Part shown: positions 11,026 through 64,000 of the stretch, piece after piece
Numbering within the stretch: the stretch's first letter is position 1
How the letters are laid out: each line of letters opens with the position of its first letter
Origin: Blastocladiella emersonii ATCC 22665
Taxonomy: Eukaryota; Fungi; Blastocladiomycota
Length of the DNA stretch: 64,000 nucleotides
Assembly (NCBI GenBank): GCA_025594325.1
Contig: JANHCV010000002.1
Span: 1,612,001 to 1,676,000, forward strand
Direction: 5' to 3'
Position numbers and translations under genes: made by a program
Notes under the pieces: model-generated
What the model was told of the DNA's origin: nothing
What the model saw: only the letters and a program-made list of their open reading frames with translations
Database searches by the model: none

Positions 11026-13212
11026 ATGACGCAGTATAGCTACGACGACACGGGCGTCTTCTTCGCCTACTTTGTGCTGACCGTTGCGCTGCTGGTGCTG
11101 GTCCCTGCCACGTACAAGTGGGTCATGGCCGGATCGCGTACGCTTTCTCCTGTGCTGTGGTCGACTCGAGTAGCTGACGCACCCGCCCCCTCAGGCTCGT
11201 TCCGCGACACGTACGCGTGCACCTGCGACCTGTGCAAGCGCAAGCACAAGGCCAACCGCAAGAAGGAGGCCAAGAACCACCGCGTCTCCAACTTTGCCAA
11301 GTACGTTACCCTTCTCTTGTGCTTCCTCGTCGCGTCGCTCACACGCGCTTCCGTCACCTACAGGCTCATTGCCCTCGGCGCCGGCTGGGCCGCCGTCATC
11401 TTCGCCGCGTACCACATCAGCGTGACCGAGCTCGACACGCCCGTCTCGTGGGACCCGTGGAACGTGCTCGGCATCGCCACCTCGGCCACCCGCTCCGAGA
11501 TCCGCAAGGCCTACCACAAGCTGTCGCTCGAGATGCACCCCGACAAGGTGGCCCCCGAGCTCAAGGAGAAGGCCAACTCCATCTTCGCCGACATCTCCAA
11601 GGCCTACAAGGTCCTGACCAACGCCGAGGCCCGTAAGAACTTTGAGGACTGGGGCCACCCCGACGGCAAGCAGTCCTTCTCCATGGGCATCGCGCTCCCG
11701 ACCTTCATGGTCGGCTCCACCTCGGCCCCGGCCGTCCTCGCCGGCTACTTCATCGCGTTCGGCGTGCTCCTCCCCTACGCCCTGCACACGTGGTGGAGCA
11801 AGACCCGCAACTACACCAAGGACAACGTGCACACCCGCTCCATGGGCATCCTGTTCAAGCGCACCCGCGAGGACGGTGGCCTCAAGTCGATCCTCAACAA
11901 CCTCGCCCACGCCCAGGAGCTCGCCGAGGAGTGCCCGCACCGCGGTGCCGCCGACGACAAGCACCTCGCCGAGCTCGAGCCGCAGGTCGCCGCCGCCTTC
12001 GAGGCGCTCGGCGAGACGTGGGACCCCAAGGAGGACCTCAAGCCCGCCACCACGCCGACCGCGCGCAAGGCCCTGGTGCACCTGCTCGCGCACTTCACGC
12101 GGCCCAAGGGGTACACGGCGTCGGCCGACGCGCAGCGCGCCGTCGTCAAGGCCGCGCACCTCCTGCACCGCGGCGTGCTGCAGATCACGCTGGCGCGCGG
12201 GTGGCTGATCCCGTCGCTGTACGCCATGGACCTGTCGCAGCTGCTCGCCCAGGGCGTGTGGCACTCGCGGTCGCCGCTGTTCCAGGTGCCCCACGCCACG
12301 GTCGACCTCGTCAAGCAGTGCGCGACGCGCGACCCGCCCGTGCGCTCGCTCCAGGATCTCGCCCTGCTCGACGACGCGGACCGCCGCGCCATCTTCAAGG
12401 GCCTCAAGAACGACCAGTACGCGGACGTGACCGCCTTCCTCCACGCGTTCCCGCGCATCGTGCTCGAGAAGCTCGACTTCAAGGTCGTTGGCGAGCCCAA
12501 CATCACCCCCGGGTCGCTCGTCACCTGCACCATCCGCCTGCGCCTCGTGTCCATCACGGTCCCGCTCGACTCGCTCAACGCCGAGTACGAGGCCAAGAAG
12601 GCGGCGCGCGCCGCCAAGATCGAGGCCGGCGAGCCCGTCTCGGACGACGAGGAGGACGTGGACGCGCTCGGGCTCGACGGCGAGGGCGACGGCGGCCGCG
12701 GCACCGCCGCCAAGGTCGACCTCGCGTCCAAGGTCAAGTTCTCGCACGCGCCCCGGTTCCCCGCCGACAAGCGGCCCGGGTGGTGGGTGTTCATCGGCAA
12801 CCTCGAGTCGAATCGCGTCATCACGGCCTCGCGCATCCCCGACCACTCGGAGGCCAAGAAGAAGGGCGCCAAGGGCGGCGACGACTCGGACCGGTTCACG
12901 GTCAAGCTCCAGTTCCAGGCGCCCGGCCAGGTCGGCGTGTACCCGTTCTCGGTGTTCCTCAAGTCGGACCACTGGGTCGGCGCCGACATGCGCCTCGACA
13001 TCCAGATGAAGGTCGAGCCGCCGCTCGCCGACCGCGTCGTCGAGGAGGAGGACGATATCTCGGACCCCGAGGAGGACACCATCGCCGGCCAGATGGCCAT
13101 CCTCCGCGGCCAGCGCGTCAAGCCCGCCGCCGGGTACGCCCCCGACTCGGGCGTGAATGCCGGCGCCGGGTCCGACTCGGACTCGTCGTCGTCCAGCGAC
13201 GAGGACGAGTAA
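11026..13212 (+). CDS. SEC63: Translocon J-domain subunit Sec63
   Basis: N-terminus MTQYSYDDTGVFF, DPWNVLGI, J-domain with HPD (MHPDKV), YKVLT..GHPDGKQSFSMGIALP, Sec63/Brl domain and acidic C-terminus. Two in-frame introns predicted at 11138-11194 and 11301-11363. Confidence 0.95.
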   Translation: MTQYSYDDTGVFFAYFVLTVALLVLVPATYKWVMAGSRTLSPVLWSTRVADAPAPSGSFRDTYACTCDLCKRKHKANRKKEAKNHRVSNFAKYVTLLLCFLVASLTRASVTYRLIALGAGWAAVIFAAYHISVTELDTPVSWDPWNVLGIATSATRSEIRKAYHKLSLEMHPDKVAPELKEKANSIFADISKAYKVLTNAEARKNFEDWGHPDGKQSFSMGIALPTFMVGSTSAPAVLAGYFIAFGVLLPYALHTWWSKTRNYTKDNVHTRSMGILFKRTREDGGLKSILNNLAHAQELAEECPHRGAADDKHLAELEPQVAAAFEALGETWDPKEDLKPATTPTARKALVHLLAHFTRPKGYTASADAQRAVVKAAHLLHRGVLQITLARGWLIPSLYAMDLSQLLAQGVWHSRSPLFQVPHATVDLVKQCATRDPPVRSLQDLALLDDADRRAIFKGLKNDQYADVTAFLHAFPRIVLEKLDFKVVGEPNITPGSLVTCTIRLRLVSITVPLDSLNAEYEAKKAARAAKIEAGEPVSDDEEDVDALGLDGEGDGGRGTAAKVDLASKVKFSHAPRFPADKRPGWWVFIGNLESNRVITASRIPDHSEAKKKGAKGGDDSDRFTVKLQFQAPGQVGVYPFSVFLKSDHWVGADMRLDIQMKVEPPLADRVVEEEDDISDPEEDTIAGQMAILRGQRVKPAAGYAPDSGVNAGAGSDSDSSSSSDEDE

Positions 13213-13277: not shown

Positions 13278-14020
13278 TCATGCGACCGTGTTCCGCGGCA
13301 GCGTCCGCGCCGCCGCGTGCTCGGCCTGCTTCGCGCAAGCGACGATCTCCGCCGCCATGGCCGCGCCCGCGTACTGGTTCGACGGCGGCGCGCACGTGTA
13401 GTGCTCGAGCAGCATACCATCCGTCGAGGCGACGCGTGGCGCGGGAGTGCGCGGCTGCACCGACGTTGACGCGACGCGGATCGAGCGCGGCGTGCTGCCG
13501 GATGCAACCGCGGGACGCAGCGGCACACTCGCAAACGTCAGGTCCTTGTGCGTGTCGGGATCCTCGAACCTGCTCAGGGCCACAGCGCCGCCGACCACCG
13601 CCACGTCGAGCCCGAACCACACCATCGGCTCGGTCGGGACTAGCGGCAGGCCCGCGAACCGGAGCGCGACGAGGATCTGCGTCGCGGCCTGGTACGCGGC
13701 GAACCCGAGCTTCCACGTGCGCAGGGCCGACGAGGTTTCGCCAGCGACGAGCTCGCGGCGCAGATGCGCGGCGTGGACGCACACGTCGGCGACGAGGGCC
13801 AGGAGCCACGACGCGACGAAGCAAATGGCGATGGTTTGTGCGTCCGTGTTGCCGTCGGGTTCTGGAGAGCGGGGGGAAGGTGGTGAAAAGAGATTGCAGT
13901 GACGCGGCTGAGATGTTCGCGTGGATTCCGGCCATGAGCTCGCAGCCAGTGGTGAGAAGCGTGAGATGAACGTCGCGTCCAAGCGTGGCGTACGAGCAAC
14001 ACTGCGTGAACGGCAAGGTT
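13278..14020 (-). pseudogene. Multi-TM family copy A (probable frameshift; lacks the last intron of its paralogs)
   Basis: Homology to copies B-D (DVCVHAAHLRREL, WKLGFAAY). In-frame TAG at 14021-14023 precedes the first homologous block. Frame switch near the G6 run at 13871-13876, which could be a sequencing error. Confidence 0.6.
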
Positions 14021-14228
14021 CTATATCGACGTGGCCGTGGCGACTGACCGGGAGCGAGCTTGGTTGATGGCACGAATGATGAACTGCGGTGCGATCACGG
14101 TTCCATCACCGCATCGTCCTGGACGCGCTCTTGACGCGTCGGTGCGGCGCGGTCGACTAGTGCACAGAAGATCCGCTTGGAGCGAGTGGATCACAATCAA
14201 GAATGTTTTATGGTCGGACGAGATTAAC

Positions 14229-14893
14229 TTACGACTGCTGACCAGCGACCGACAGGCGACGGGCCTCTGCGCGTTCGTCGTCGCTGTCGAACCGCCCGTC
14301 GTCCTTGTACCAGTACGCCTTAGGAAGAGTGAGGCTCGTCGCACCCGCGAGGGCAATCTTAGCACGCACGATTTCAAGGTCAGCCAGCCAGACGCGCACC
14401 CGGGTCGCAACGAAGTATTATCGCACCATAGCAACGTCCTTGCCGAGCCGAACCCACCAAGCCGAGCTCGGCCACAACGCTTCGGCGGGCCCGTACTTGA
14501 TCACCACCGTCTCCGTCGCCGCAAAGTAGACGGGGAGGACGAGTTTCGGCGCCTGCAAGCCCGCGGAAAAGCGGCCGGTGAGCTCGCGGCGCAAGTAATG
14601 AATGTGCCGCGCGAGGTCGAAGAGGTACGCGGGAATCCAGGTGCAGAGCATGACGAGGAACAGGATGTCTACCCCTTGGTCGCTGCTCTCGCGCTGCTGG
14701 TCCACGGACGAGACGGCGCGAAGCTGCGCGGCGACGGCGCGGATCGCTGGGTACAGGTACACGACGGGAATGAGCTGCGCGGCGTTAGCGAGCGACAACA
14801 AGGCCGAAGACGCGTCGTGTGACGTACCAGCGAGAACGCGTGCGCGATCCAGCGTGCAGTCGGGATGCCGTTGAACAGCTCGCGTTGCCCCAT
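14229..14893 (-). CDS. Multi-TM family copy B (about 4 TM, 2 introns)
   Basis: Spliced model MGQRELFNGIPTARWIAHAFSL|LIPVVYLYP...DLARHIHYLRRELTG...KDVAM|IALAGATSLTLP...QQS-stop, with canonical GT..AG introns. Confidence 0.65.
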
Positions 14894-53987: not shown

Positions 53988-55218
53988 ATGAAGCTAATGG
54001 AGGAACGACTACATGCAACGCGACTGCCAGACATGGTCATTGACCAAATTCTATGCTACGCCGTGCGGGCGACTGATCCCGACGACGTCAACCAGCTGCT
54101 TCAATACGGCCGCGTCCTGCTTCGCGAAGGAGCCCCTCGCGTCCACCGAGCGATCCAGAACCACATGATCTCAATCTCCATGGACGATGCCAGCGCGACG
54201 GAACGCTTGAACGTGCTTGACGCTTGGCGCCGGTCTGGGAAGCCCCTCGACTACTCTGCGCGCGCCATCACCGATGCGGCCCCGTCGTACAAGACGCTCG
54301 ACTGGTGGCGCCGCTCCGGTCTTCCGCTTCCCGATTGCATGGTCGGGCCGATGGTCAAGGTTCACTTCAACGGAATTTGCCAAATGTCCGAGGATGACGA
54401 TCATGTTGTACGTTGCATTTTTTGCTCAAAAAATTCGGGCCCTCTCGACTAACGCGATCATATCAGCAACTCGTGCGCCGTGACGATCCGCCAGGCGACA
54501 AGTATATCACGTCGAACTTCATCCCCAACGGGCTCGACGGTAAGCATTACCAGACCATGGTGTGGTGCAGTGGGATGCGCGTCACAAAGACTGGAGCGTC
54601 CGCCCTCGCCAAGGCTATGAACAAACCGATGATGAATGTTCAGGACGTCGAACTCAATTATTGTGACTTAACGTTCCCGGTTATCTGCGCGTTACAGCTA
54701 CCCGAATTGGTCTTGGAGCTTGAGCTCGGTTTCAACTGGGCAAGCGAAGGCGCTGCGGACTATGCTGCCAAGGAGGGCAACGTCTCGCCTTTTCCCCGCA
54801 CCTCCGCCGCCTTTCACTTCGCAGTAACATCCTTGGAAGCCCAAACGATGTCGACGCTCTCTTTCGTTCGTTGCCCTCATCGCTCACAGAACTCAACCTC
54901 TTGGGCACTTTTCTTGGCGCTGAAAACGCGGGCGTTCTCGCCGACTATCTCCCGCAAAGTCTCAAAACTCTGAACTTGTCTGAATGTCATCTCGACTCCC
55001 AGTGCGTGGAAGTACTTGCGCCGTGCCTCCCAAAGACTTTGTACAAGCTGTACTTGAACTCCAACAACATCACCGCAGTCGGCGCAGCCGACCTCGCGCA
55101 CCACTTCCCGCCACAGCTCTCCCTGCTTGATCTAAGCAACAACCCGCTTGGCGACAAGGGACTAGCTGCACTCTCCGCTGGACTCGGCGCGAGCCTGCAA
55201 CTGCTGTTGTTGTATTCC
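53988..55218 (+). pseudogene. LRR-family gene with a 1-nt frameshift (near 54801), truncated by the element insertion
   Basis: Family N-terminus (VIDQILCYAVRATDPDDV), intron 54408-54466, FPRT/LRRLSLRSN frame switch. LRRs run to GASLQLLLLYS and homology then stops at a palindrome. Confidence 0.8.
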
Positions 55219-55233
55219 TTAAGGGATACGACA
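55208..55233. repeat. Imperfect 12-bp inverted repeat at the junction (TGTTGTATTCCT-TA-AGGGATACGACA)
   Basis: 10 of 12 positions complementary; both mismatches are transitions. Confidence 0.8.
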
Positions 55234-55359
55234 TGGGCTGACCCACTGCCACTCGGGCTGACCAATTGCTTACCCCGAGCAGTTGGCGGCAGTCACTTGG
55301 GGTAACCACGTGAGACCCAGTTGCTTACCCCAGGTGGTTAATAATATGTTGGATTCTAA

Positions 55360-55386
55360 TGTCGTGTTCCCTTAGGGAACACGACA
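55360..55386. repeat. Perfect 12-bp inverted repeat (TGTCGTGTTCCC-TTA-GGGAACACGACA)
   Basis: Read directly. Each arm matches the junction palindrome arm at 9 of 12 positions. Confidence 0.9.
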
Positions 55387-55686
55387 CGCGGACGGAGGCT
55401 GAAGGCCAAAGCAGGTGGGCGGGAGGGTGGGTGGAAGGGAGGGGGCAAGTGGTCAAGGAGTGAGTCCTTGACCTGACCCCCAAGCCAGTCCCTGACCAAC
55501 CCCTTGGGCTGACCATTGCTTACCCCGAGCGGTCGGCGGCGGCCAGCGAGCGCAGCGAGACGAAGAGCAGCGCAGCTGCAGCTACCCACTGACAGAGTTC
55601 CCTGGTCTGGTCCCTGACCTGACCCCCAAGCCCGTCCCCAACCACCTGCCGCAAGCGGCTGCTATGAAGCCACTCACCGCGCCAAC

Positions 55687-55754
55687 CTCCACTTTCATGG
55701 CATATTGCGACAGAGTATATATATACACTACCCTTTTTTGCCATGAAAGTGGAG
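55687..55754. other. Concentric dyad: perfect 16-bp inverted repeat around a 12-bp AT palindrome (origin-like)
   Basis: CTCCACTTTCATGGCA (55687-55702) and TGCCATGAAAGTGGAG (55739-55754). GTATATATATAC (55715-55726) has the same centre, 55720/55721. Confidence 0.8.
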
Positions 55755-55925
55755 ATTGTCAGAGACAGAGGTCAGGGTACGGGGGGGAGGTCAAGGACAG
55801 GGGAGTGTCCTTAGCAGCATCAATGTATTGGGCAGGACAGGGTCAGGGGTACAAGGTCAAGGCAGAGGAGCGTCTTAGCAGACAGCGTCTTAGCAGGAAG
55901 GCAGCGTGGCAGGTCATGGAGGGTC

Positions 55926-58900
55926 TTAGAGCTCGTTGTTGTCCTCGTTGTCGTCCTCGTCCTTGTCCATCTCCAGGACAAACGGCGCCGAATTGGCCGG
56001 GGGTCGGTTCCAGGTCTTGTACATGACAAAGTACAGAATGTCGTCTGTCCACTTCAGGTTACTGTACTTCTTGCCGCGTACTGAGACCCGGGGTTCGTCC
56101 TTGTCTGGCACAGCAAGGCACTTGTTAAAGTAGGTGCCAAGAAGCCTGTTTAGGACTGTTGCTGTGTCACACTTGTAATACCCAAGCTTCTTGAAGTACT
56201 TGTGGATGTCTGCTTCAAACTTGGCGGGGATGGTGGCCTGGATGTTGAACTCCTTGGACGTGCGGAGGTCCATGTCGTTGTGTTCCAGGAGCTTGTGCAG
56301 GACGTGGCCCTTGTCCTTGGTGTAAAAGTGCTGGATACGCTCCATGAAGCTCTCCGCGTTGTCGTCCCAGATGATCTTCATGTTGTCCATGCTCAGACCA
56401 TTGAACTTGTGGATGAAGAAGGCCTTGCGGATGGAGAGGGAGATGATCCAGTCCGGGTCCTTGATGGTACCTTTGCAGTAGGCACGCATGAGCTCCTTGG
56501 ATGGTGGCTGGACGTTTGCCCATTCGAAAGACCAGCCCGACGTCATGATATCCTTAATCTCAGGGTGCGCCTTGTAGTAGTACTCGGGGGAGTCGTCCAT
56601 GACAACGTTGGCGACCTTGCGGAAGGCGTCAAAGACCTTGAGGCAGAAGGTCACAGCGGCCATCTCGTTCTCAAGATCCGTGTTCTTGACAATAGCCCGG
56701 TGAGGTTTGCCGACCGAGTCCGAGTCAATGACCTGTAACTTGTTCATGTACGCGCCGTGGCAACCATTGCTGATCATAAACACGATCTTGTTGTCAATGG
56801 GGTAGCGCACGCGGTAGATTGCCTGGAAGAAGTTGCGGGCAGGGACCCAGGACTTGTAGCGCGCGTACACCTTGTGGAAGACGTCTGGCTTTGAAAAGTT
56901 GACCCCCACAGTGATCTTGAGGTTGGCAATGACTATACGGACCGTATCATTGCCCCACACAGAGTCAGGGTCAATGAGTTCCTTGTCCTCGTGGTTGGGG
57001 CGGTCGCCGTGGTAGAGCTTGATCTGCTTGCCAATCTTCCACGTCTCCTCGGCAAAGACCCGCTCGAGGTACTTGCCAAAGGTCTGCACCGACCACTTGG
57101 TTGACTTCTTGCATGGTCGTGGGAGGAAGAGGTAGAGCTTCTTGTTGGCCTTGAGGTCGGCAATGATGTTGCTCTCCATGATGTCTTCGGCGGACTTCTT
57201 GTTGTCCTTGTCGTCAGTGATGAGGCTCATCTTGCGCGGCTCAAAATTCTTGCCGAGCGTGTTCGTGATCACCTTGATCTTACCATGGAGTATGGTCTTG
57301 ATGTTGTGCTCGACAGTAAAGGAGCGGAGGACATCCATGGTCAGGTTTGTGACAAACGCGTCCATGAAGATACCCTTGCTGCCCTTGTGCTCGCACAGCG
57401 TCTTGAAGGCCTTGAGGTTGGCCTTGAGGTTGTTGCAAATGGTGGTTGTGTGCAACTTGGCGTCCTGGAACATCTTGAGGACCGTCTCGGACTCATCCAC
57501 CACAACAATGTTGTAGGGCTCGGTCAAGTAGTGCAGCAAGCACGGCGAGACAATGAGTTGCTTGTGATCCCCCAGTGTCTTCTTGTCCTTGATGCTGCGG
57601 TAGTTGACAAAGCCAAGCTTCTGTTCGCGGGCTCGACCCTCGGTGTTGTGGGCCAGGGTGATGCGAGGTGTGATCCAGACCACTCGCGCGTCTGGGTACT
57701 TGGCAATGTAGTCGCAAACAGCGCCTGTCTTGTTGGAGCCCATGCCCGTGGCCAGCACGTTGAACTTGGCCTCGGTAATGTCGTTGCAGCTCAGGAACTG
57801 GTTGGGGCTGGTGACGTCCACCGGTACCTCAAGCGACTGCTCAAACTTGGCCATGGCCTTGGACTTGAACGCGTCTGGGAACCGCTTGTAGAAGATGGCC
57901 TTGACGAACGTGTCCAGCACCTGGTAGTTGTCGTTGCTGGCAATCTCGTTCCATCGGTCCCAGTACTTTTGCATGCGCTGAGCCGAGTTGTCCTGCTGCG
58001 ACGTCCACGCCCAGAACTGGTCAAATGTGACCCCTTTGCGCATGGCCCATGTCATGATCCGCCAGGTCACGTTGTTGTGGAACGCGTTCTTGGGGCTGAT
58101 GGGGATGTTGTGGAGGATCTTGAGGGGCGTGGCGTCGTAGTAGAAGAAGTCAGGGTTGATCTGCACGTCCTTGAACTTGGGGATGTCAAGGTTGTAGTTG
58201 AGGCGACCCGCGTGGCGCTTGGTCCGCGCTTCCTTGGCCTTGGCAGTCACAAACTCTTCAAAGGACAGGTCCGAGACCGACGCGCAGTTGGGGTCAAAGT
58301 CGCACTGGATCAAGTGCTTGGACAGGCGGTCCTTGTTACCCGAGATCCACACGCCAGGTGTCTTCTTGGGCTTGGACTGGTTGATGCACTTCATGAAGCG
58401 GTGCTTGCTGTACACGCTGGAGTCAAAGCCAAGCTTGACGTGGTCGGGGTGGCTGCAGAACAGCTTCAGGAACGGCATGTCCTTGAGCGTGACTGTGTAG
58501 TTGCTGAGGACAATGTGCCATGACTTTTTGAGGTCTGTCTCATAGCCGCAGACCTGGAGGTTGGCGCCGGGGAACTGGGCCAGGATGACCTTCTTGATGA
58601 CGTCCAGGGTCACGTCCTTGCAGTTGCCTGGGCAGTCAATGTCAAAGTAGACCTTGGACAGGCGCTCAGGGTGGACCATCTCCTGGATGCAGCGGTTCTT
58701 GTTGAGGAGCCTGGCCAGGTCAGCTGTCTTGACCTTGGCAAAGTAGTGCGCCGCCTTGGGTTGGCTGTGGTTGTCGACGCCCTTGTTGATGAGGCGCTTG
58801 ATGACCGTCTTGTCGTCTTGCAGCTCGGACAAGAGCTTGCACTGAGGGCCCATTTCATCACCACCTTCATCCTTGCCATGGTACCACTGGAGACCAAAGG

Positions 58901-58940
58901 ATTTGCCACCTGCATTTTTGGGGACCGTCTTGCAGACCAT
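55926..58940 (-). CDS. AEP (PrimPol-like) primase + PriCT-like + herpes UL9-like SF2 helicase fusion (about 1004 aa)
   Basis: ATG at 58940 (MVCKT). AEP motifs YFDID, KSWHIV, FDSSVYSKHRFMK. Helicase motifs TGMGSNKT, VVWITPR, VVVDESE, MDAF, ITVGVNF, FQAIYRVR. Confidence 0.85.
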   Translation of the reverse strand: MVCKTVPKNAGGKSFGLQWYHGKDEGGDEMGPQCKLLSELQDDKTVIKRLINKGVDNHSQPKAAHYFAKVKTADLARLLNKNRCIQEMVHPERLSKVYFDIDCPGNCKDVTLDVIKKVILAQFPGANLQVCGYETDLKKSWHIVLSNYTVTLKDMPFLKLFCSHPDHVKLGFDSSVYSKHRFMKCINQSKPKKTPGVWISGNKDRLSKHLIQCDFDPNCASVSDLSFEEFVTAKAKEARTKRHAGRLNYNLDIPKFKDVQINPDFFYYDATPLKILHNIPISPKNAFHNNVTWRIMTWAMRKGVTFDQFWAWTSQQDNSAQRMQKYWDRWNEIASNDNYQVLDTFVKAIFYKRFPDAFKSKAMAKFEQSLEVPVDVTSPNQFLSCNDITEAKFNVLATGMGSNKTGAVCDYIAKYPDARVVWITPRITLAHNTEGRAREQKLGFVNYRSIKDKKTLGDHKQLIVSPCLLHYLTEPYNIVVVDESETVLKMFQDAKLHTTTICNNLKANLKAFKTLCEHKGSKGIFMDAFVTNLTMDVLRSFTVEHNIKTILHGKIKVITNTLGKNFEPRKMSLITDDKDNKKSAEDIMESNIIADLKANKKLYLFLPRPCKKSTKWSVQTFGKYLERVFAEETWKIGKQIKLYHGDRPNHEDKELIDPDSVWGNDTVRIVIANLKITVGVNFSKPDVFHKVYARYKSWVPARNFFQAIYRVRYPIDNKIVFMISNGCHGAYMNKLQVIDSDSVGKPHRAIVKNTDLENEMAAVTFCLKVFDAFRKVANVVMDDSPEYYYKAHPEIKDIMTSGWSFEWANVQPPSKELMRAYCKGTIKDPDWIISLSIRKAFFIHKFNGLSMDNMKIIWDDNAESFMERIQHFYTKDKGHVLHKLLEHNDMDLRTSKEFNIQATIPAKFEADIHKYFKKLGYYKCDTATVLNRLLGTYFNKCLAVPDKDEPRVSVRGKKYSNLKWTDDILYFVMYKTWNRPPANSAPFVLEMDKDEDDNEDNNEL

Positions 58941-58978
58941 GTTGTTATGATGAGGTAACAGAAAAGGTGACAGGACAG

Positions 58979-58992
58979 GTGCGTTTAAACGC
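58979..58992 (-). promoter_or_regulatory. Element promoter motif GCGTTTAAACGCAC upstream of the primase-helicase
   Basis: Ends 38 nt before ATG 58940; a near-identical motif precedes the recombinase gene. Confidence 0.55.
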
Positions 58993-59104
58993 GCAGGATT
59001 TAGCGTTAATGACTGGGCCCGGGAGCCCTTGCTGGCATGACCCATGACTTGCCACTGTCCAGGCCCATCTAACCTTGCATGACCTGACCCTGACCCAGAC
59101 ACGA

Positions 59105-59540
59105 CCTCCCCCATGAGCCCGACTTGGGAACCAGCAGGGTCCGAGGTCACGACCACCAAACCGTGACCTGGTAAGCGACTGAGTCCGAGGTCACGACCCT
59201 CCCATGCTCCCAACTTGGGAGCCAGCAGGGCCCGAGGTCACGATCCTTGAACTGTGACCTGGGCAGCGACTGAGGGCAAAGTCACCGACCCCCCATGCTC
59301 CCGACTTGGGAGCCAATTGCGTCTCAGGTCACGATCCTTGAACCGTGACCTGGGCAGCAACTGAGGGCAAAGTCACCAACCCCCCATGCTCCCGACTTGG
59401 GAGCCAGTAGGGTCCGAGGTCACAACCCCCATGAGCCCAACTTGGGAGCCAGTAGGGTCCGAGGTCACGACCCCCATGAGACCAACTTGGGAGCCAGTAG
59501 GGTCCAAGGTCACAAACCTCTCAAACCGTGACCTGGGCCC
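59105..59540. repeat. Tandem array: three 91-bp units then 45-bp units, with internal palindromes
   Basis: Anchor CCATG..CCCRACTTGGGA at 59111, 59202, 59293, 59384, 59429, 59474 (spacings 91, 91, 91, 45, 45). Confidence 0.9.
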
Positions 59541-59609
59541 TCCCACGGTCCATGACTTGCCACCATCATGACCCTGACCCAGGCCCAGCTACCCAGAAAA
59601 AAGAACGTT

Positions 59610-59623
59610 GCGTTCAAACGCAC
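59610..59623 (+). promoter_or_regulatory. Element promoter motif GCGTTCAAACGCAC upstream of the recombinase
   Basis: Ends 39 nt before ATG 59663. Confidence 0.55.
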
Positions 59624-59662
59624 TTGAGCCCATGGAGCCTTTTTGTTGACAGTCAGTAAACC

Positions 59663-60805
59663 ATGGCGCTTGACTCTCTTGCCTCCCAGGTCGCCATTGC
59701 CCTCGCTCAGCACTTTGCCGCCGATGTAGTGCACCAAGTGCTCAATGGTATCAAGCCGCTGCTGGCATCCTTTGACGAGCGGCTCAAGGGAGTTGAGACC
59801 AGCCTCGCCGCGCTGGCTGCAGTGTTGCGTAACTGCAATCACCGTCCCAATCACACCCCCGTCGACGAGTCTGGCGAGCCCATGGACACTGATCCCCAGG
59901 TCAAGTACGTGCAGATGACCGAGGAATCCATTGCGGCGTGCGTCAATGCGCGTGTTCAGAACAAGCACGGGGAACTGGTTGAGCTGAGCGACACGGACAA
60001 GGCCAAGGCATCCCGCGTGCTCTGTGCCTTTGCCAAGTCGGGCATGGACATTGAAGACGTTGATGCCGTGTCCAAAGCTGTGGCAGCGTACCACGCGTCC
60101 AAGGGCGAGCAGGGGCTGCAGGTTGAGACGCTCAAGGCCCTGGCCAAGTACTGCACCTGGAATGGTCAGCCTGAACTTGGGGCCAAGTACACAGAGGCCA
60201 AGAAGCAGGACGCTGCCGACTTCTGCAACGCGCGCAAGGAACTCGAGTCTGGTGCGCTCCCGAGCCGTGACGCCATTCGCACTGCTATTGTTGATGCAAA
60301 GGGCTGGGACTCGGGCACGGGGCTTCTGCGTCTGTACCTCCAAGTCGTGAGTGCAGTGCGCAGCGACCCCGCGTTCCTGACCACAAAGCCAATCACTGGG
60401 TACCCGTACTACGACCCAGAGACCCAGATTCTGGCCAGCAATGTCATTGTCAAGACAGAGGGCTGTGGCTACAACTTCTCGCACACAGTTAGTGAGCCCA
60501 AGGTCGCCGCCGCTCTTGAGCGTATCATTGCCCAGCGTCTTGCCAAAGGCCATGACTTTGTCTTCAACAACTACACCTGCGAGGAGCTCAAGGACACCAT
60601 GCTCCGCAAGAGGGTTAGCAACACCTGGTGCAAGTCAATTCACCGGGCTGCAGAGACAGTTGGCTTTGAGGATGGCGGCGTGGCAGTGATCCGCCGTATC
60701 TCCACCAGCGAGAACTTTGCCGCGCAGCAAGCTATTGCTGACCGCGCACACGAGATGGGTCACAGCGTCCCTGTTGCCCTGACCTACTACATGACGCCTC
60801 AGTAA
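59663..60805 (+). CDS. Tyrosine recombinase of the virophage/PLV type (380 aa)
   Basis: Catalytic order R (SAVRSD), K (IVKT), xxxR (AVIRR, His absent), H (MGHS), Y (TYY) near the C-terminus. Confidence 0.75.
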   Translation: MALDSLASQVAIALAQHFAADVVHQVLNGIKPLLASFDERLKGVETSLAALAAVLRNCNHRPNHTPVDESGEPMDTDPQVKYVQMTEESIAACVNARVQNKHGELVELSDTDKAKASRVLCAFAKSGMDIEDVDAVSKAVAAYHASKGEQGLQVETLKALAKYCTWNGQPELGAKYTEAKKQDAADFCNARKELESGALPSRDAIRTAIVDAKGWDSGTGLLRLYLQVVSAVRSDPAFLTTKPITGYPYYDPETQILASNVIVKTEGCGYNFSHTVSEPKVAAALERIIAQRLAKGHDFVFNNYTCEELKDTMLRKRVSNTWCKSIHRAAETVGFEDGGVAVIRRISTSENFAAQQAIADRAHEMGHSVPVALTYYMTPQ

Positions 60806-60833
60806 TCCTTTTGTCTCCGCCTTTGTTAATACA

Positions 60834-61946
60834 ATGTATGCCCACGAAGAGCCGCTCACAGACGCACAGCAAGCATTCCTGACAGACTTGTACTACAAGC
60901 ACGGCCACGTAGGTGTTGGCATCCGTTGGCTCTTTGACATTGTGTCCAGAGAGAACACAGGGAAGCACATCTACCGCGCCCAGCTAGAGAGATGGCTCGG
61001 CAAACAGTCTGTGAGGCAGCAGTACAAACGCGCACCTCAGAAGCGCCAAGACATTCGAAGCATCAACTCAACAAGTCCTGGCCGCAACTTTCAGCTCGAC
61101 CTCATTGACATGGGCGAAAACGGTACGTACAAGGGCTTCCGTTACATTCTCACGTGTGTCAACCTGGCGAGCCGCCGCGTCTACCTCCAACCCATCAAGA
61201 CCAAGGACAAGACGCGGGAAGCATGGTCCAGCGTGGTCGCCAAGCACAGCCTTGCACCTGCCACGATCCAGACGGACAATGGGACCGAGTTCTTTGGAAT
61301 AGAGGCCGGGACCAAGGCCAAGCACATCAAGGGCAAGGCAGGAGTGCCATACGGTCAAGGTGTCATTGAGCGTATGAACGGGACCATCCGCCGGATGCTC
61401 ACACCGTGGCTGTCCATCCCGGGCAACAACGACTGGCCCAAGCACCTCGAGACCATTGAATCTGTCATCAACAGCAGCAAGTCGAGGGCCACGGGCAGGG
61501 CGCCCAACGAGTTCCATGACATGCCCCGCAAAACGGCCAAGGAAGAGCTCAAGGCAATCCGAGCTGCCAAGGGCAAGCCCGAGGGCAACCCTCTGAGCGC
61601 GTTGCTGAAGGTAGGGACCCAGGTCCGAGTCCGCGAGCCGTACAAGACTGCCATGGAGGCCAAGGGGAAGCCGGTCTGGTCGCCGACCGTGAGCCAGGTC
61701 CAGGTCGTGCGCAAGGGGTCGGGCGTGAGCAAGCCAAGCTACAAGGTCCAAGGCCTCAAGGGCTTCTACCCTCGAAGCGACGTCCAGCCAGTCACAGCGA
61801 CCCAGGACCCGCCAACAAGGCAGCGCGTAGGTCCAGGTCTTCCAAGGCTCCCTGTTGCGCGCACCCCAGTCACGCCAAGGGAGCCCTCGACCCGGGTCAG
61901 GCGCGTCCCAGTCCGAGTCCAAGAAAAGTGGGACCGCGGGCTTTAG
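60834..61946 (+). CDS. Retroviral-like (rve) DDE integrase, Maverick/Polinton type (370 aa)
   Basis: QLDLIDM, YILTCVNLASR, IQTDNGTEF, IERMNGTIRR, INSSKSRATGRAP. C-terminal KVGTQVRV..WS..YKV. No gag, RT or RNase H nearby. Confidence 0.92.
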   Translation: MYAHEEPLTDAQQAFLTDLYYKHGHVGVGIRWLFDIVSRENTGKHIYRAQLERWLGKQSVRQQYKRAPQKRQDIRSINSTSPGRNFQLDLIDMGENGTYKGFRYILTCVNLASRRVYLQPIKTKDKTREAWSSVVAKHSLAPATIQTDNGTEFFGIEAGTKAKHIKGKAGVPYGQGVIERMNGTIRRMLTPWLSIPGNNDWPKHLETIESVINSSKSRATGRAPNEFHDMPRKTAKEELKAIRAAKGKPEGNPLSALLKVGTQVRVREPYKTAMEAKGKPVWSPTVSQVQVVRKGSGVSKPSYKVQGLKGFYPRSDVQPVTATQDPPTRQRVGPGLPRLPVARTPVTPREPSTRVRRVPVRVQEKWDRGL

Positions 61947-63886
61947 AGCAGGGTCCAGTGGCTTTGAATGATGACCTGGCAGTCGTTGGCAACTGCGACT
62001 GACGGGATCCAGATGAAAGAGTAGCTCTTGGCCGCGTCAAGGTACTCAATGCTCGAGAACTGAAGGAACTGGACATTGCCTTCAGCACGGCACCCGGTGA
62101 CAAGCGACACTGCAATCATGTCCGTCATATTGTACAGCGCAAAGTTCACAGTGTGGGCTCCAGGGAGCGCGCCGTTTGCGTAGTAGCCCTTTGCATGGAC
62201 GAGGTAGTAGCCACTGACAGGGGGTTTGACGCATCCATTGATCACAGACGTGAACGCGCCCGCTGTGGACTGGAACGCAAAGGTGGCCGGGCCCGTTGAT
62301 GCTGTGCCGCCAATGATCTTGCCGCCCGTGGTCACTCCATTTGTAGAGCGGTGCTCGGCCTGAGCGACGTACCGGGTCGTGCCAGACCGCGAGTCAACGT
62401 ACGCCTTGTTTGCCGCGTTGGTGCCTGCCACTGGAGCAAGGTCAAGGGTGAGCTGCCCTGTGAAGCGACCAGTGCCATTGACGCGGAACCTTTCTGTGCC
62501 AAGCGTCGCCGAGCCCACGACCACATTGCCGCCACCTGCCACAAGGGAGACCCCGCCTGTGGTCGCAGACGCATTCTCAATGTTACCCGCCGCTGTGCAT
62601 GCCAGGTTGCTTCGCAGTACGCCTGCCTGCTTAAAGTCGACGTACGTCAATGTATTGGCAGCCGAGTCAAAGACAAGGTTCGCGCTTGTGGCATTCCGGA
62701 CCAGGACGTTGGGCACAGTCAGTTGCTTGCCAACTCCAAGACCACCAGCAATGGTGACTGCTCCAGTGCTTGATGTCAAACTGTCCGTCGTATTTGCAAA
62801 GGCAAAGGCAGCGCCGAGTCCAAGGGTGGACTGGGGGAGCGTGCCAGTGACCGAGGCTGCGCTCACGGCCGTGACCTTGGCCGAGACGTCGGGGAGTCGT
62901 GCCAGGTCAATGGTCCCTGCAAGCTTGGCCGAGTCAATGCCAGATGCCAGCTTGGCGTTGGTCAGGGTCCCGTTGGCGATGCGGGCAGGGTCAAGGATCC
63001 CAGTGAGCTTGACCGCCGACACGTCCGCGACCTTGGCGTCCGTGACTGCGCCTGCTGCCAGGTGGGCTGTTCCAATGGACCCGACGTTGAGCTTGCCCCC
63101 ATCAATGCCAGTTGCCAGCTTGGCGTTGGTCACGGCCGCGTCTGCCAGGACCAGGGAGCCAACCGTGCCTGCTGCCAGCTTGGACCCGTCGATGCCAGCT
63201 GCCACCTTGGCGTTGGATACAGCACCGTCTGCCAGGGCTCCCGTCCCAATAGTCCCTGCAACGAGCTTGGACCCAGACACAGACGCGACCTTGGCATCTG
63301 TGACTGCCAGGTCGATGAGAGCCACTGTGCCGACTGTGCCTGCCACGAGCTTGGACCCAGACACGGACGCGACCTTGGCATCAGTCACTGAGCCGTCTGC
63401 CAGGACCGAGGTCCCAACTGTGCCTGCCACGAGCTTGGACCCAGACACCGACGCGACCTTGGCATCAGTCACTGAGCCGTCTGCCAGAACCGAGGTCCCA
63501 ATGGCTGGGAGGTTGGACGCACTGAGTACGCCCACAACCTTGGACGCAGACACAGTGTCCAGCTGAGCATCAACGAGCTTGCCTGTGACCTGCCCTGCTG
63601 TAATCGTGGCGACCTTGTCGGCCGTGATGCTGGCTGGGAGCAGCTGTGCCGTACCAACCGACTTGACATAGAGCCCTGCTGCGCCCACGCCAAGGGTCTG
63701 GTTGTCGACCTTGGCCGACACAGTGGTCCCTGAGACTGCCACGCCAGGGCCAGCAACAGGTGTGCCAACCGTGGCGTACACGGCACTGATGGCCGCATCA
63801 ACGTAGGCCTTGGACACGTCCGGGACCCCCGTGGTAGACACGGTCAGAGACGCAGTACTTGAGACGTTAAAGATATTCTTGACCAT
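61943..63886 (-). CDS. Virion fibre/adhesin-like protein with 28-29-aa shaft repeats and a C1q-like head (about 647 aa)
   Basis: ATG at 63886. KAYVD motifs, about 6 repeats of GTSVLADGSVTDAKVASVSGSKLVAGTV, TGAVTIAGGLGVG, head with PPVSGYYLV. Confidence 0.75.
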   Translation of the reverse strand: MVKNIFNVSSTASLTVSTTGVPDVSKAYVDAAISAVYATVGTPVAGPGVAVSGTTVSAKVDNQTLGVGAAGLYVKSVGTAQLLPASITADKVATITAGQVTGKLVDAQLDTVSASKVVGVLSASNLPAIGTSVLADGSVTDAKVASVSGSKLVAGTVGTSVLADGSVTDAKVASVSGSKLVAGTVGTVALIDLAVTDAKVASVSGSKLVAGTIGTGALADGAVSNAKVAAGIDGSKLAAGTVGSLVLADAAVTNAKLATGIDGGKLNVGSIGTAHLAAGAVTDAKVADVSAVKLTGILDPARIANGTLTNAKLASGIDSAKLAGTIDLARLPDVSAKVTAVSAASVTGTLPQSTLGLGAAFAFANTTDSLTSSTGAVTIAGGLGVGKQLTVPNVLVRNATSANLVFDSAANTLTYVDFKQAGVLRSNLACTAAGNIENASATTGGVSLVAGGGNVVVGSATLGTERFRVNGTGRFTGQLTLDLAPVAGTNAANKAYVDSRSGTTRYVAQAEHRSTNGVTTGGKIIGGTASTGPATFAFQSTAGAFTSVINGCVKPPVSGYYLVHAKGYYANGALPGAHTVNFALYNMTDMIAVSLVTGCRAEGNVQFLQFSSIEYLDAAKSYSFIWIPSVAVANDCQVIIQSHWTLL

Positions 63887-63906: not shown

Positions 63907-64000
63907 ATGATTTCCAGCGACCATGACCTGAGCCTGGACGAGTGGCAGGAGCACCTCGCCGGGACCATGCCCGTGCCAAGCAGCTGGTACAGCAAGAGCG
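63907..64000 (+). CDS. Possible start of the next element gene (MISSDHDLSLDEWQEHL...), open to the window end
   Basis: 31 open codons only, divergent from the fibre gene. Confidence 0.25.
   Translation, partial: MISSDHDLSLDEWQEHLAGTMPVPSSWYSKS

Follow-up and report, generated by a model that had tools for sequence, protein, structure and literature searches.

A 70-bp dyad beside AEP-UL9-like primase-helicase genes of virophages and polinton-like viruses, and its candidacy as a replication origin

Inverted iterons flanking an AT-rich region are a known plan for replication origins. Several described systems come close to the case reported here. In the oriS/UL9 system of HSV-1, inverted boxes lie around an AT-rich spacer (PMC12543377). 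In pRN1 the origin, a stem-loop that directly follows the primase-helicase gene, is needed for replication; for this stem-loop and that of phage BIP-1 the GTG could be dispensed with, and specific binding was not observed (PMC4234260). For polinton-like viruses (PLVs) associated with entomopoxviruses, the 'End module' hypothesis proposes repeats beside the primase-helicase as the origin (PMC11296320). AEP-SF2 proteins that are UL9-related and have the same domain plan as the protein described here are found in Mimivirus (R8), ASFV (F1055L), OsHV-1 and some mriyaviruses, and no cis-acting site is named for them in the accessible part of 10.1101/2024.02.29.582850. For virophages and PLVs without a protein-primed polymerase, the accessible literature searched defines no origin and offers terminal repeats or palindromes as hypotheses. 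That literature holds no description of the dyad family reported below; supplements and most subscription journals lay outside the search, so the family may be in print.

The locus lies in a window of 64,000 nt, the whole stretch of DNA that was analysed, which is eukaryotic and includes host genes for a dynein heavy chain (named from its translation) and a SPRY protein. An integrated, multi-copy element starts at about 55219, where the summed contig depth of run X1 (a quantity that is not copy number) rises from 37 to about 1800 and where contigs with different flanks give loose ends at 55208 and 55219. This left end (55208–55233, no strand assigned) is an imperfect palindrome with 11-bp arms around TTAA, at which a host LRR frame breaks off. 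The element encodes the primase-helicase considered below (55926–58940, minus strand), a probable tyrosine recombinase of Preplasmiviricota type (59663–60805, plus strand), an rve-type integrase (60834–61946, plus strand; PF00665, E 5e-5, below the curated cut-off) and a fibre-like repeat protein (61943–63886, minus strand; PF09327, E 5e-10). The recombinase scored 0.94–0.95 to Preplasmiviricota clusters of a protein atlas, one of which has Phage_integrase on 16% of its members; it had no Pfam match, and BLAST related it to the L131 integrase at E 0.044 only. Genes of two integration types, the probable tyrosine recombinase and the rve integrase, thus stand in this one element (59663–61946). 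Because no capsid gene lies in the 8.8 kb of element in view, which continues past the window end at 64000, we only infer that it is polinton-like, from the recombinase, the integrase, the fibre and the relatives of the helicase. PLVs in chytrid genomes have been published already (PMC7805220; 10.64898/2026.06.19.733378).

The candidate replication origin of this element is a dyad of about 70 bp (55687–55754, strandless), situated some 470 nt inward from the left end and 171 nt past the stop codon of the gene for the AEP and UL9-like SF2 helicase. Its 16-bp left arm (55687–55702, plus strand) carries an outer GC box at about 55687–55692 and an inner GC box at about 55696–55701, with an A/T tract between them. 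The right arm (55739–55754, minus strand) is its perfect reverse complement, and the arms enclose a 36-bp AT-rich core in which a 12-bp TA-repeat palindrome (55715–55726, strandless) is the predicted unwinding point. The initial annotation had placed the 16-bp inverted repeat and the 12-bp AT palindrome on one centre, 55720/55721, and on re-check all these coordinates were right. With loops of up to 60 nt allowed, no perfect inverted repeat of the window is longer than this 16-bp one, which is also the sole one of its kind in the 8.8 kb of element in view; its length was reached in none of 100 dinucleotide shuffles of the window, the shuffle maximum being 15. No second copy of the dyad stands upstream of the window helicase gene. 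An open reading frame that crosses it (55664–56026, plus strand) is probably spurious, because other copies of the element show indels there. Rfam returned only microRNA-precursor matches far below gathering scores, which we dismissed as generic hairpin matches.

The adjoining gene encodes an AEP primase, a helical domain, a UL9-like SF2 helicase and a putative C-terminal DNA-binding domain; it has AEP motifs and a Walker A/B helicase core (motifs YFDID, SWHIV, GMGSNKT and VVDESE), its likely start is at 58940, and its frame is open to 59114. The closest relatives are other Blastocladiella emersonii proteins (58–92% identity, seven clusters), followed by those of Allomyces and chytrids. The UL9-like helicase gene that had been claimed beside the dyad is borne out, since the helicase part, and this domain alone, matches HSV-1 OBP at E 3e-20. 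The protein itself has no Pfam match, PF02399 being found on close paralogues and on the virophage contig L268, and it lacks the RVKNL motif. Its structure model (pLDDT 84.7) has HSV OBP bound to oriS as its top four structure matches, at E 5e-15 for the whole model. For the modelled C-terminal domain (pLDDT 76.8), the OBP DNA-binding domain ranks first of 48,161 chains, aligned to OBP residues 547–824, in a weak match (Z 4.0, rmsd 4.5 over 131 residues) with unrelated rows within 1 Z and winged-helix proteins next; Foldseek with this domain gave nothing at E≤0.001. The models are thus suggestive of a resemblance between the C-terminal domain and the OBP DNA-binding domain. A FastTree tree places the window helicase inside a clade of 18 rows (support 99) that also contains L002, L003, L004 and L027, all of which bear dyads.

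What the locus shares with HSV-1 is the arrangement of inverted boxes around an AT-rich spacer and an SF2 helicase homologous to OBP, whose DNA-binding domain the C-terminal domain may weakly resemble (PMC12543377). In contrast to UL9, the window protein has an N-terminal AEP; in contrast to oriS, each arm has two boxes within a fully symmetric 70 bp, there is no Box 3–Box 1 side hairpin, the site lies beside the helicase gene itself, and several dyads per 20-kb genome are found in the family. No box of Table 1 in PMC12543377 occurs in the window arms, and their box sequence is unlike Box 1, GTTCGCAC. The stem-loops of pRN1 and BIP-1 resemble the dyad as palindromes after a fused primase-helicase gene, in keeping their structure while the sequence drifts and in having GTG/CAC in the stem; they differ in their archaeal or phage SF3 helicase, their length of about 100 nt and their single copy, whereas here the helicase is of SF2 and the box register is fixed (PMC4234260). 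'End module' PLVs have the gene order of the window, with terminal repeats on one side of the primase-helicase and a tyrosine recombinase on the other, but their proteins are D5-like SF3, their terminal inverted repeats are large and no motif is defined, whereas the dyad is internal, short and often multi-copy (PMC11296320). The window dyad likely works as oriS and the pRN1 downstream origin do, yet its box sequence puts it outside the herpes family.

The helicase alignment fetched one viral and 74 metagenome loci, at 24–41% best-segment identity. Relatives at 24–33% protein identity carry a dyad of about 70 bp with the same anatomy: in each arm the GC boxes are spaced by about 10 bp, and the core is centred on TATA. 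A position-blind symmetry scan recovered a recurring dyad of this length, in which the outermost sequence is usually AAAAGTGG and the centre is of TATA type. A relatives-only model (R1), built from 41 dyads with the window sequence excluded, was run on 83 loci. The set used for counting leaves out six redundant loci together with L105 and the weak or cut hits L031 and L062, and adds two training dyads that the model missed (L030 at 3450 and L039 at 4190); genes for the junction counts come from our own ORF calling (ATG start, at least 100 aa). Of the 46 helicase genes for which 150 nt or more of downstream sequence could be read, 39 have a dyad within 500 nt after the stop codon and the remaining seven have none. 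Dyads occur at 26/37 helicase 3′ junctions and 17/42 helicase 5′ junctions against 12/155 other junctions (Fisher p 1e-14 and 2e-6, values that overstate independence because many loci are related). By junction type, 20/41 convergent, 23/143 tandem and 12/50 divergent junctions carry one, the last with no annotated gene end; away from the helicase, convergent junctions are favoured (5/24 versus 7/131, p 0.02).

The association was also seen when the helicase was not used for selection. Two helicase-blind motif scans yielded five contigs of at least 8 kb with a family dyad, all five with the helicase; five contigs of 4–6 kb had no helicase in view, and L208 and L105 were unclear matches without helicase. 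A capsid-selected control comprised 121 virophage loci (115 contigs by name; 1.25 Mb, mostly partial genomes), and the four contigs on which the helicase was in view all had model hits, two of them being from training-set viruses, one from a close relative and one, L268, independent. L268 has four dyads (1038, 4711, 11348 and 13716; 23–25 bits), two of which flank the helicase gene, one 64 nt after its stop and one upstream. The only other full-length control hit was on L220, a partial contig with a 100% capsid match to L030; another three hits spanned 35–37 nt each. Virophages with D5-type primase-helicases (L271, L291 and L307) have other kinds of palindrome near the gene. A Sputnik-type MCP is present in the dyad carriers L133 and L030, and A32 with an integrase in L131; carriers span Sputnik-type virophages and A32/integrase PLV-like contigs, and the dyad therefore tracks the replication gene, not the capsid. 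It brackets the gene in L002, L004, L014, L015, L019, L022, L037, L038, L057, L058, L066, L122, L203 and L268, the two copies being direct in some loci and inverted in others (those of L004 lie within a longer direct repeat), and a 20 kb genome may have up to five dyads (L215).

We judge the window dyad to be a diverged member of this family. It has the two GC boxes per arm and the TATA-centred AT core, and its arm register falls within 1–2 bp of the family peaks (offsets 18–22 and 28–35 from the centre). In the 64 kb it is the sole hit of model R1 with E≤10, and a weak one (11.4 bits, E 5.2); the scores of the L268 dyads are low too. A geometry-only, sequence-free template gave it 36.9 bits versus −1.9 for the next site, and scored AT-rich hairpins of the helicase-negative L292 at 25 and 22 bits as well. 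The outer box is inverted with respect to most relatives, as in a separate clade (L022, L030 and L036). In L268 each arm box is itself palindromic, a possible route between the direct and inverted outer-box types.

Other copies in the same organism were read from contigs of four DNA runs, all of one sample that is perhaps the window's own source; they are therefore paralogous copies, not independent support. One variant has GTCCCAAA in the left arm and TTTGGGAC in the right (on separate contigs, paired by complementarity only), and another has TTCCACTTTT in the left arm with matching right-arm changes at 55745, 55754 and 55755 (a single 161-nt contig). Both retain the TA centre. The initial annotation had named lack of conservation among copies as grounds against its origin; what was found is that the copies change both arms and keep the symmetry, a pattern that would suit hairpin pairing or arm-to-arm repair as well.

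That annotation had taken the whole 700-bp region as the origin, with outward-pointing GGTCA/TGACC 5-mers as UL9-like sites for the helicase or primase. The 5-mers are where and as it had described them: eight TGACC copies (55239, 55259, 55469, 55474, 55493, 55510, 55615 and 55620; 55239–55624, plus strand) and one opposite GGTCA copy (55451) in a subterminal non-coding region that is partly duplicated, and five GGTCA copies (55770, 55789, 55841, 55855 and 55912; 55770–55919, plus strand) between the dyad and the helicase stop. Thirteen of the 14 are oriented, above shuffles (mean 2.3, largest 8 in 5000), and they recall the plan of inverted iterons around an AT-rich region; 13 oriented boxes were reached in 10 of 1000 shuffles when the best of all 5-mers was taken. 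Several are local duplicates (55464–55498 resembles 55610–55644, and 55265–55295 resembles 55515–55545), and contigs of other copies skip a 165-bp piece (55445–55609) with five of them, namely four of the eight TGACC and the opposite copy. Measured from the dyad centre, they span −480 to −98 and +51 to +193; concentricity is confined to the two palindromes. The 722 nt that adjoin the 5′ end of the helicase gene (58941–59662) hold the same 5-mer 17 times, in both orientations, a density of 23.5 per kb versus 2.1 per kb in host DNA, and no such arrangement surrounds the 92 relative dyads, where 8 oriented and 14 opposite copies were counted. Because the 5-mers are asymmetric, equally or more densely present in the other gap and absent as boxes around the dyads of relatives, they are probably not origin boxes, and a 700-bp origin built on them is very improbable. 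They form a genuine motif of the whole element, probably a regulatory one, and the analogues of the oriS boxes are more likely the GC blocks within the dyad arms. A 14-nt motif that joins GTGGCA, the usual outer box of the family, to a GTCA core occurs exactly at 55906 (where it holds the last GGTCA), 59042 and 59550. The divergent gap between the helicase and recombinase genes also holds an array of seven 44–47-nt repeat units with inverted GGTCAC/GTGACC pairs (59108–59536, strandless), possibly a set of operators or an accessory part of the origin.

The dyad itself could act in RNA. The hairpin polyadenylation signal of Mimivirus and Sputnik is an RNA stem with a short loop. Like the dyad, it is a palindrome after the stop codon in virophage-type genomes, but it ends most genes (16 of 21 in Sputnik), whereas the dyad is tied to one gene and is also found between divergent genes (PMC6723459). 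That the dyad ends or polyadenylates the helicase transcript as such a hairpin, or as a TATATA-type fungal 3′-end element, is in our estimate unlikely. Its place 171 nt past the stop would suit this, as would the better fold of the helicase sense strand there (−40.3 versus −31.9 kcal/mol), the preference of the family for 3′ and convergent junctions and the preservation of pairing by changes in both arms. The dyads between divergent genes and the lack of a sense-strand G-U bias in the family argue against it: among dyads after the helicase, mismatches are G.T in 17 and A.C in 14 cases (54 versus 37 in all contexts, p 0.09), and the sense strand folds better in 10/31 and worse in 20/31. RNAalifold counted more G-U than A-C pairs, but its fold is fitted to one strand, and the unfitted count is unbiased after the helicase. 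Nor is the dyad a feature of most gene 3′ ends, as the counts at non-helicase and at other convergent junctions indicate, and it is absent from virophages with other replication genes. Its 25–36-nt core is poorly paired and its box spacing is fixed. In 72 non-redundant dyads, symmetry is 0.89–0.99 at the offsets of the GC boxes, 0.69–0.81 in the linker, where 47 of 75 mismatches are A.A or T.T, and 0.40–0.58 over the inner 11 offsets. These sequence data fit an RNA stem less well than a double-stranded site that a symmetric complex of proteins would recognise. Such a site need not be an origin, and might be an operator, an enhancer-like repeat or a gene-bracketing recombination site that enables movement between viruses. 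Many loci do have dyads on both sides of the gene, in L004 as part of a longer direct repeat, a genome may hold up to five, more than a single origin calls for, and replication genes are swapped among such viruses (PMC11296320). Bracketing copies that are direct or inverted according to the locus are unlike one recombination system, however, and a function in unwinding is suggested by the OBP-like protein and by the AT core with its TA palindrome. We hold a purely non-origin function to be improbable, and these roles can be compatible with that of an origin.

The reading that we favour is that 55687–55754 is a diverged member of a symmetric element of about 70 bp that accompanies AEP-UL9-like primase-helicase genes in virophages and PLVs, and that it is probably the replication origin of the integrated element, because dozens of virophages and PLVs that are only distantly related have a same-shaped site next to this gene. 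Comparison with relatives strongly supports the claim of an origin for the dyad, which tracks the helicase across capsids, occurs between divergent genes, shows no wobble bias and is paired with a protein that matches the OBP/oriS structure, and not for the GGTCA 5-mers as its boxes. In a mechanism of this kind, helicase molecules would bind the double-stranded GC boxes on both arms through their C-terminal domain, each arm offering a pair of boxes separated by about one turn of the helix. The bound helicase would then open the 36-bp AT core at its TA palindrome and move outward, and the fused AEP would make the initial primers for use by host polymerases; the template would probably be an excised copy of the element. 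Beyond this, and tentatively, virophages and PLVs may share a portable replicon, in which an AEP-UL9 primase-helicase gene and its own oriS-like 70-bp origin, often bracketing the gene as two copies, move between capsid lineages as a unit and preserve a one-protein form of herpes UL9/oriS initiation. If the dyad is indeed an origin, small eukaryotic DNA viruses would be linked with the oriS/UL9 initiation of herpesviruses, and a compact one-gene replicon would be available. A 70-bp candidate origin with a single cognate protein, and dozens of natural protein-site pairs with differing boxes, make origin use and specificity open to cross-binding experiments, and the dyad can serve as a DNA marker for the AEP-UL9 replication module.

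Several further observations concern the element and the contigs searched. The palindrome at the element end (55208–55233) has a related one just inside (55360–55386), and the host flanks of other insertions end in arm-like sequence of a similar kind; these palindromes may be tyrosine-recombinase sites with a preferred target. A 12-nt palindrome occurs just twice in the window, at 58981–58992 and 59610–59621, each time 41–42 nt upstream of a gene start, that of the helicase and that of the recombinase, and is a candidate promoter element common to both genes. The observed/expected ratio of CpG is 0.34–0.80 in the element (55220–63886) versus 1.28 in host DNA, which may reflect methylation of the element.

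A loose motif scan mostly recovered a different, asymmetric phage element of 66–69 bp, which directly followed a primase-helicase, as recognised with four query proteins, in only 4 of 73 loci and was not counted in the dyad family. An asymmetric 68-bp element with GTGGGC/GCCCAC is widespread in phage contigs (L080, L086, L087, L093, L101, L104 and many others), and a few of its copies directly follow VapE, D5 or AAA_25 replication genes. Other dyad types occur in virophages (L265 at 450 and 5077; L274 at 2788, 7906 and 9592; L271 at 12589; L291 at 18226; L283 at 20561; L307 at 14755–14801), those of L271, L291 and L307 adjoining Prim-Pol/D5 genes, and each type of replication gene may have its own site. 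The dyad-bearing L122 encodes a CAP12/Pycsar-type TIR domain protein (11618–12079) and a SNAP-like protein (13759–14634).
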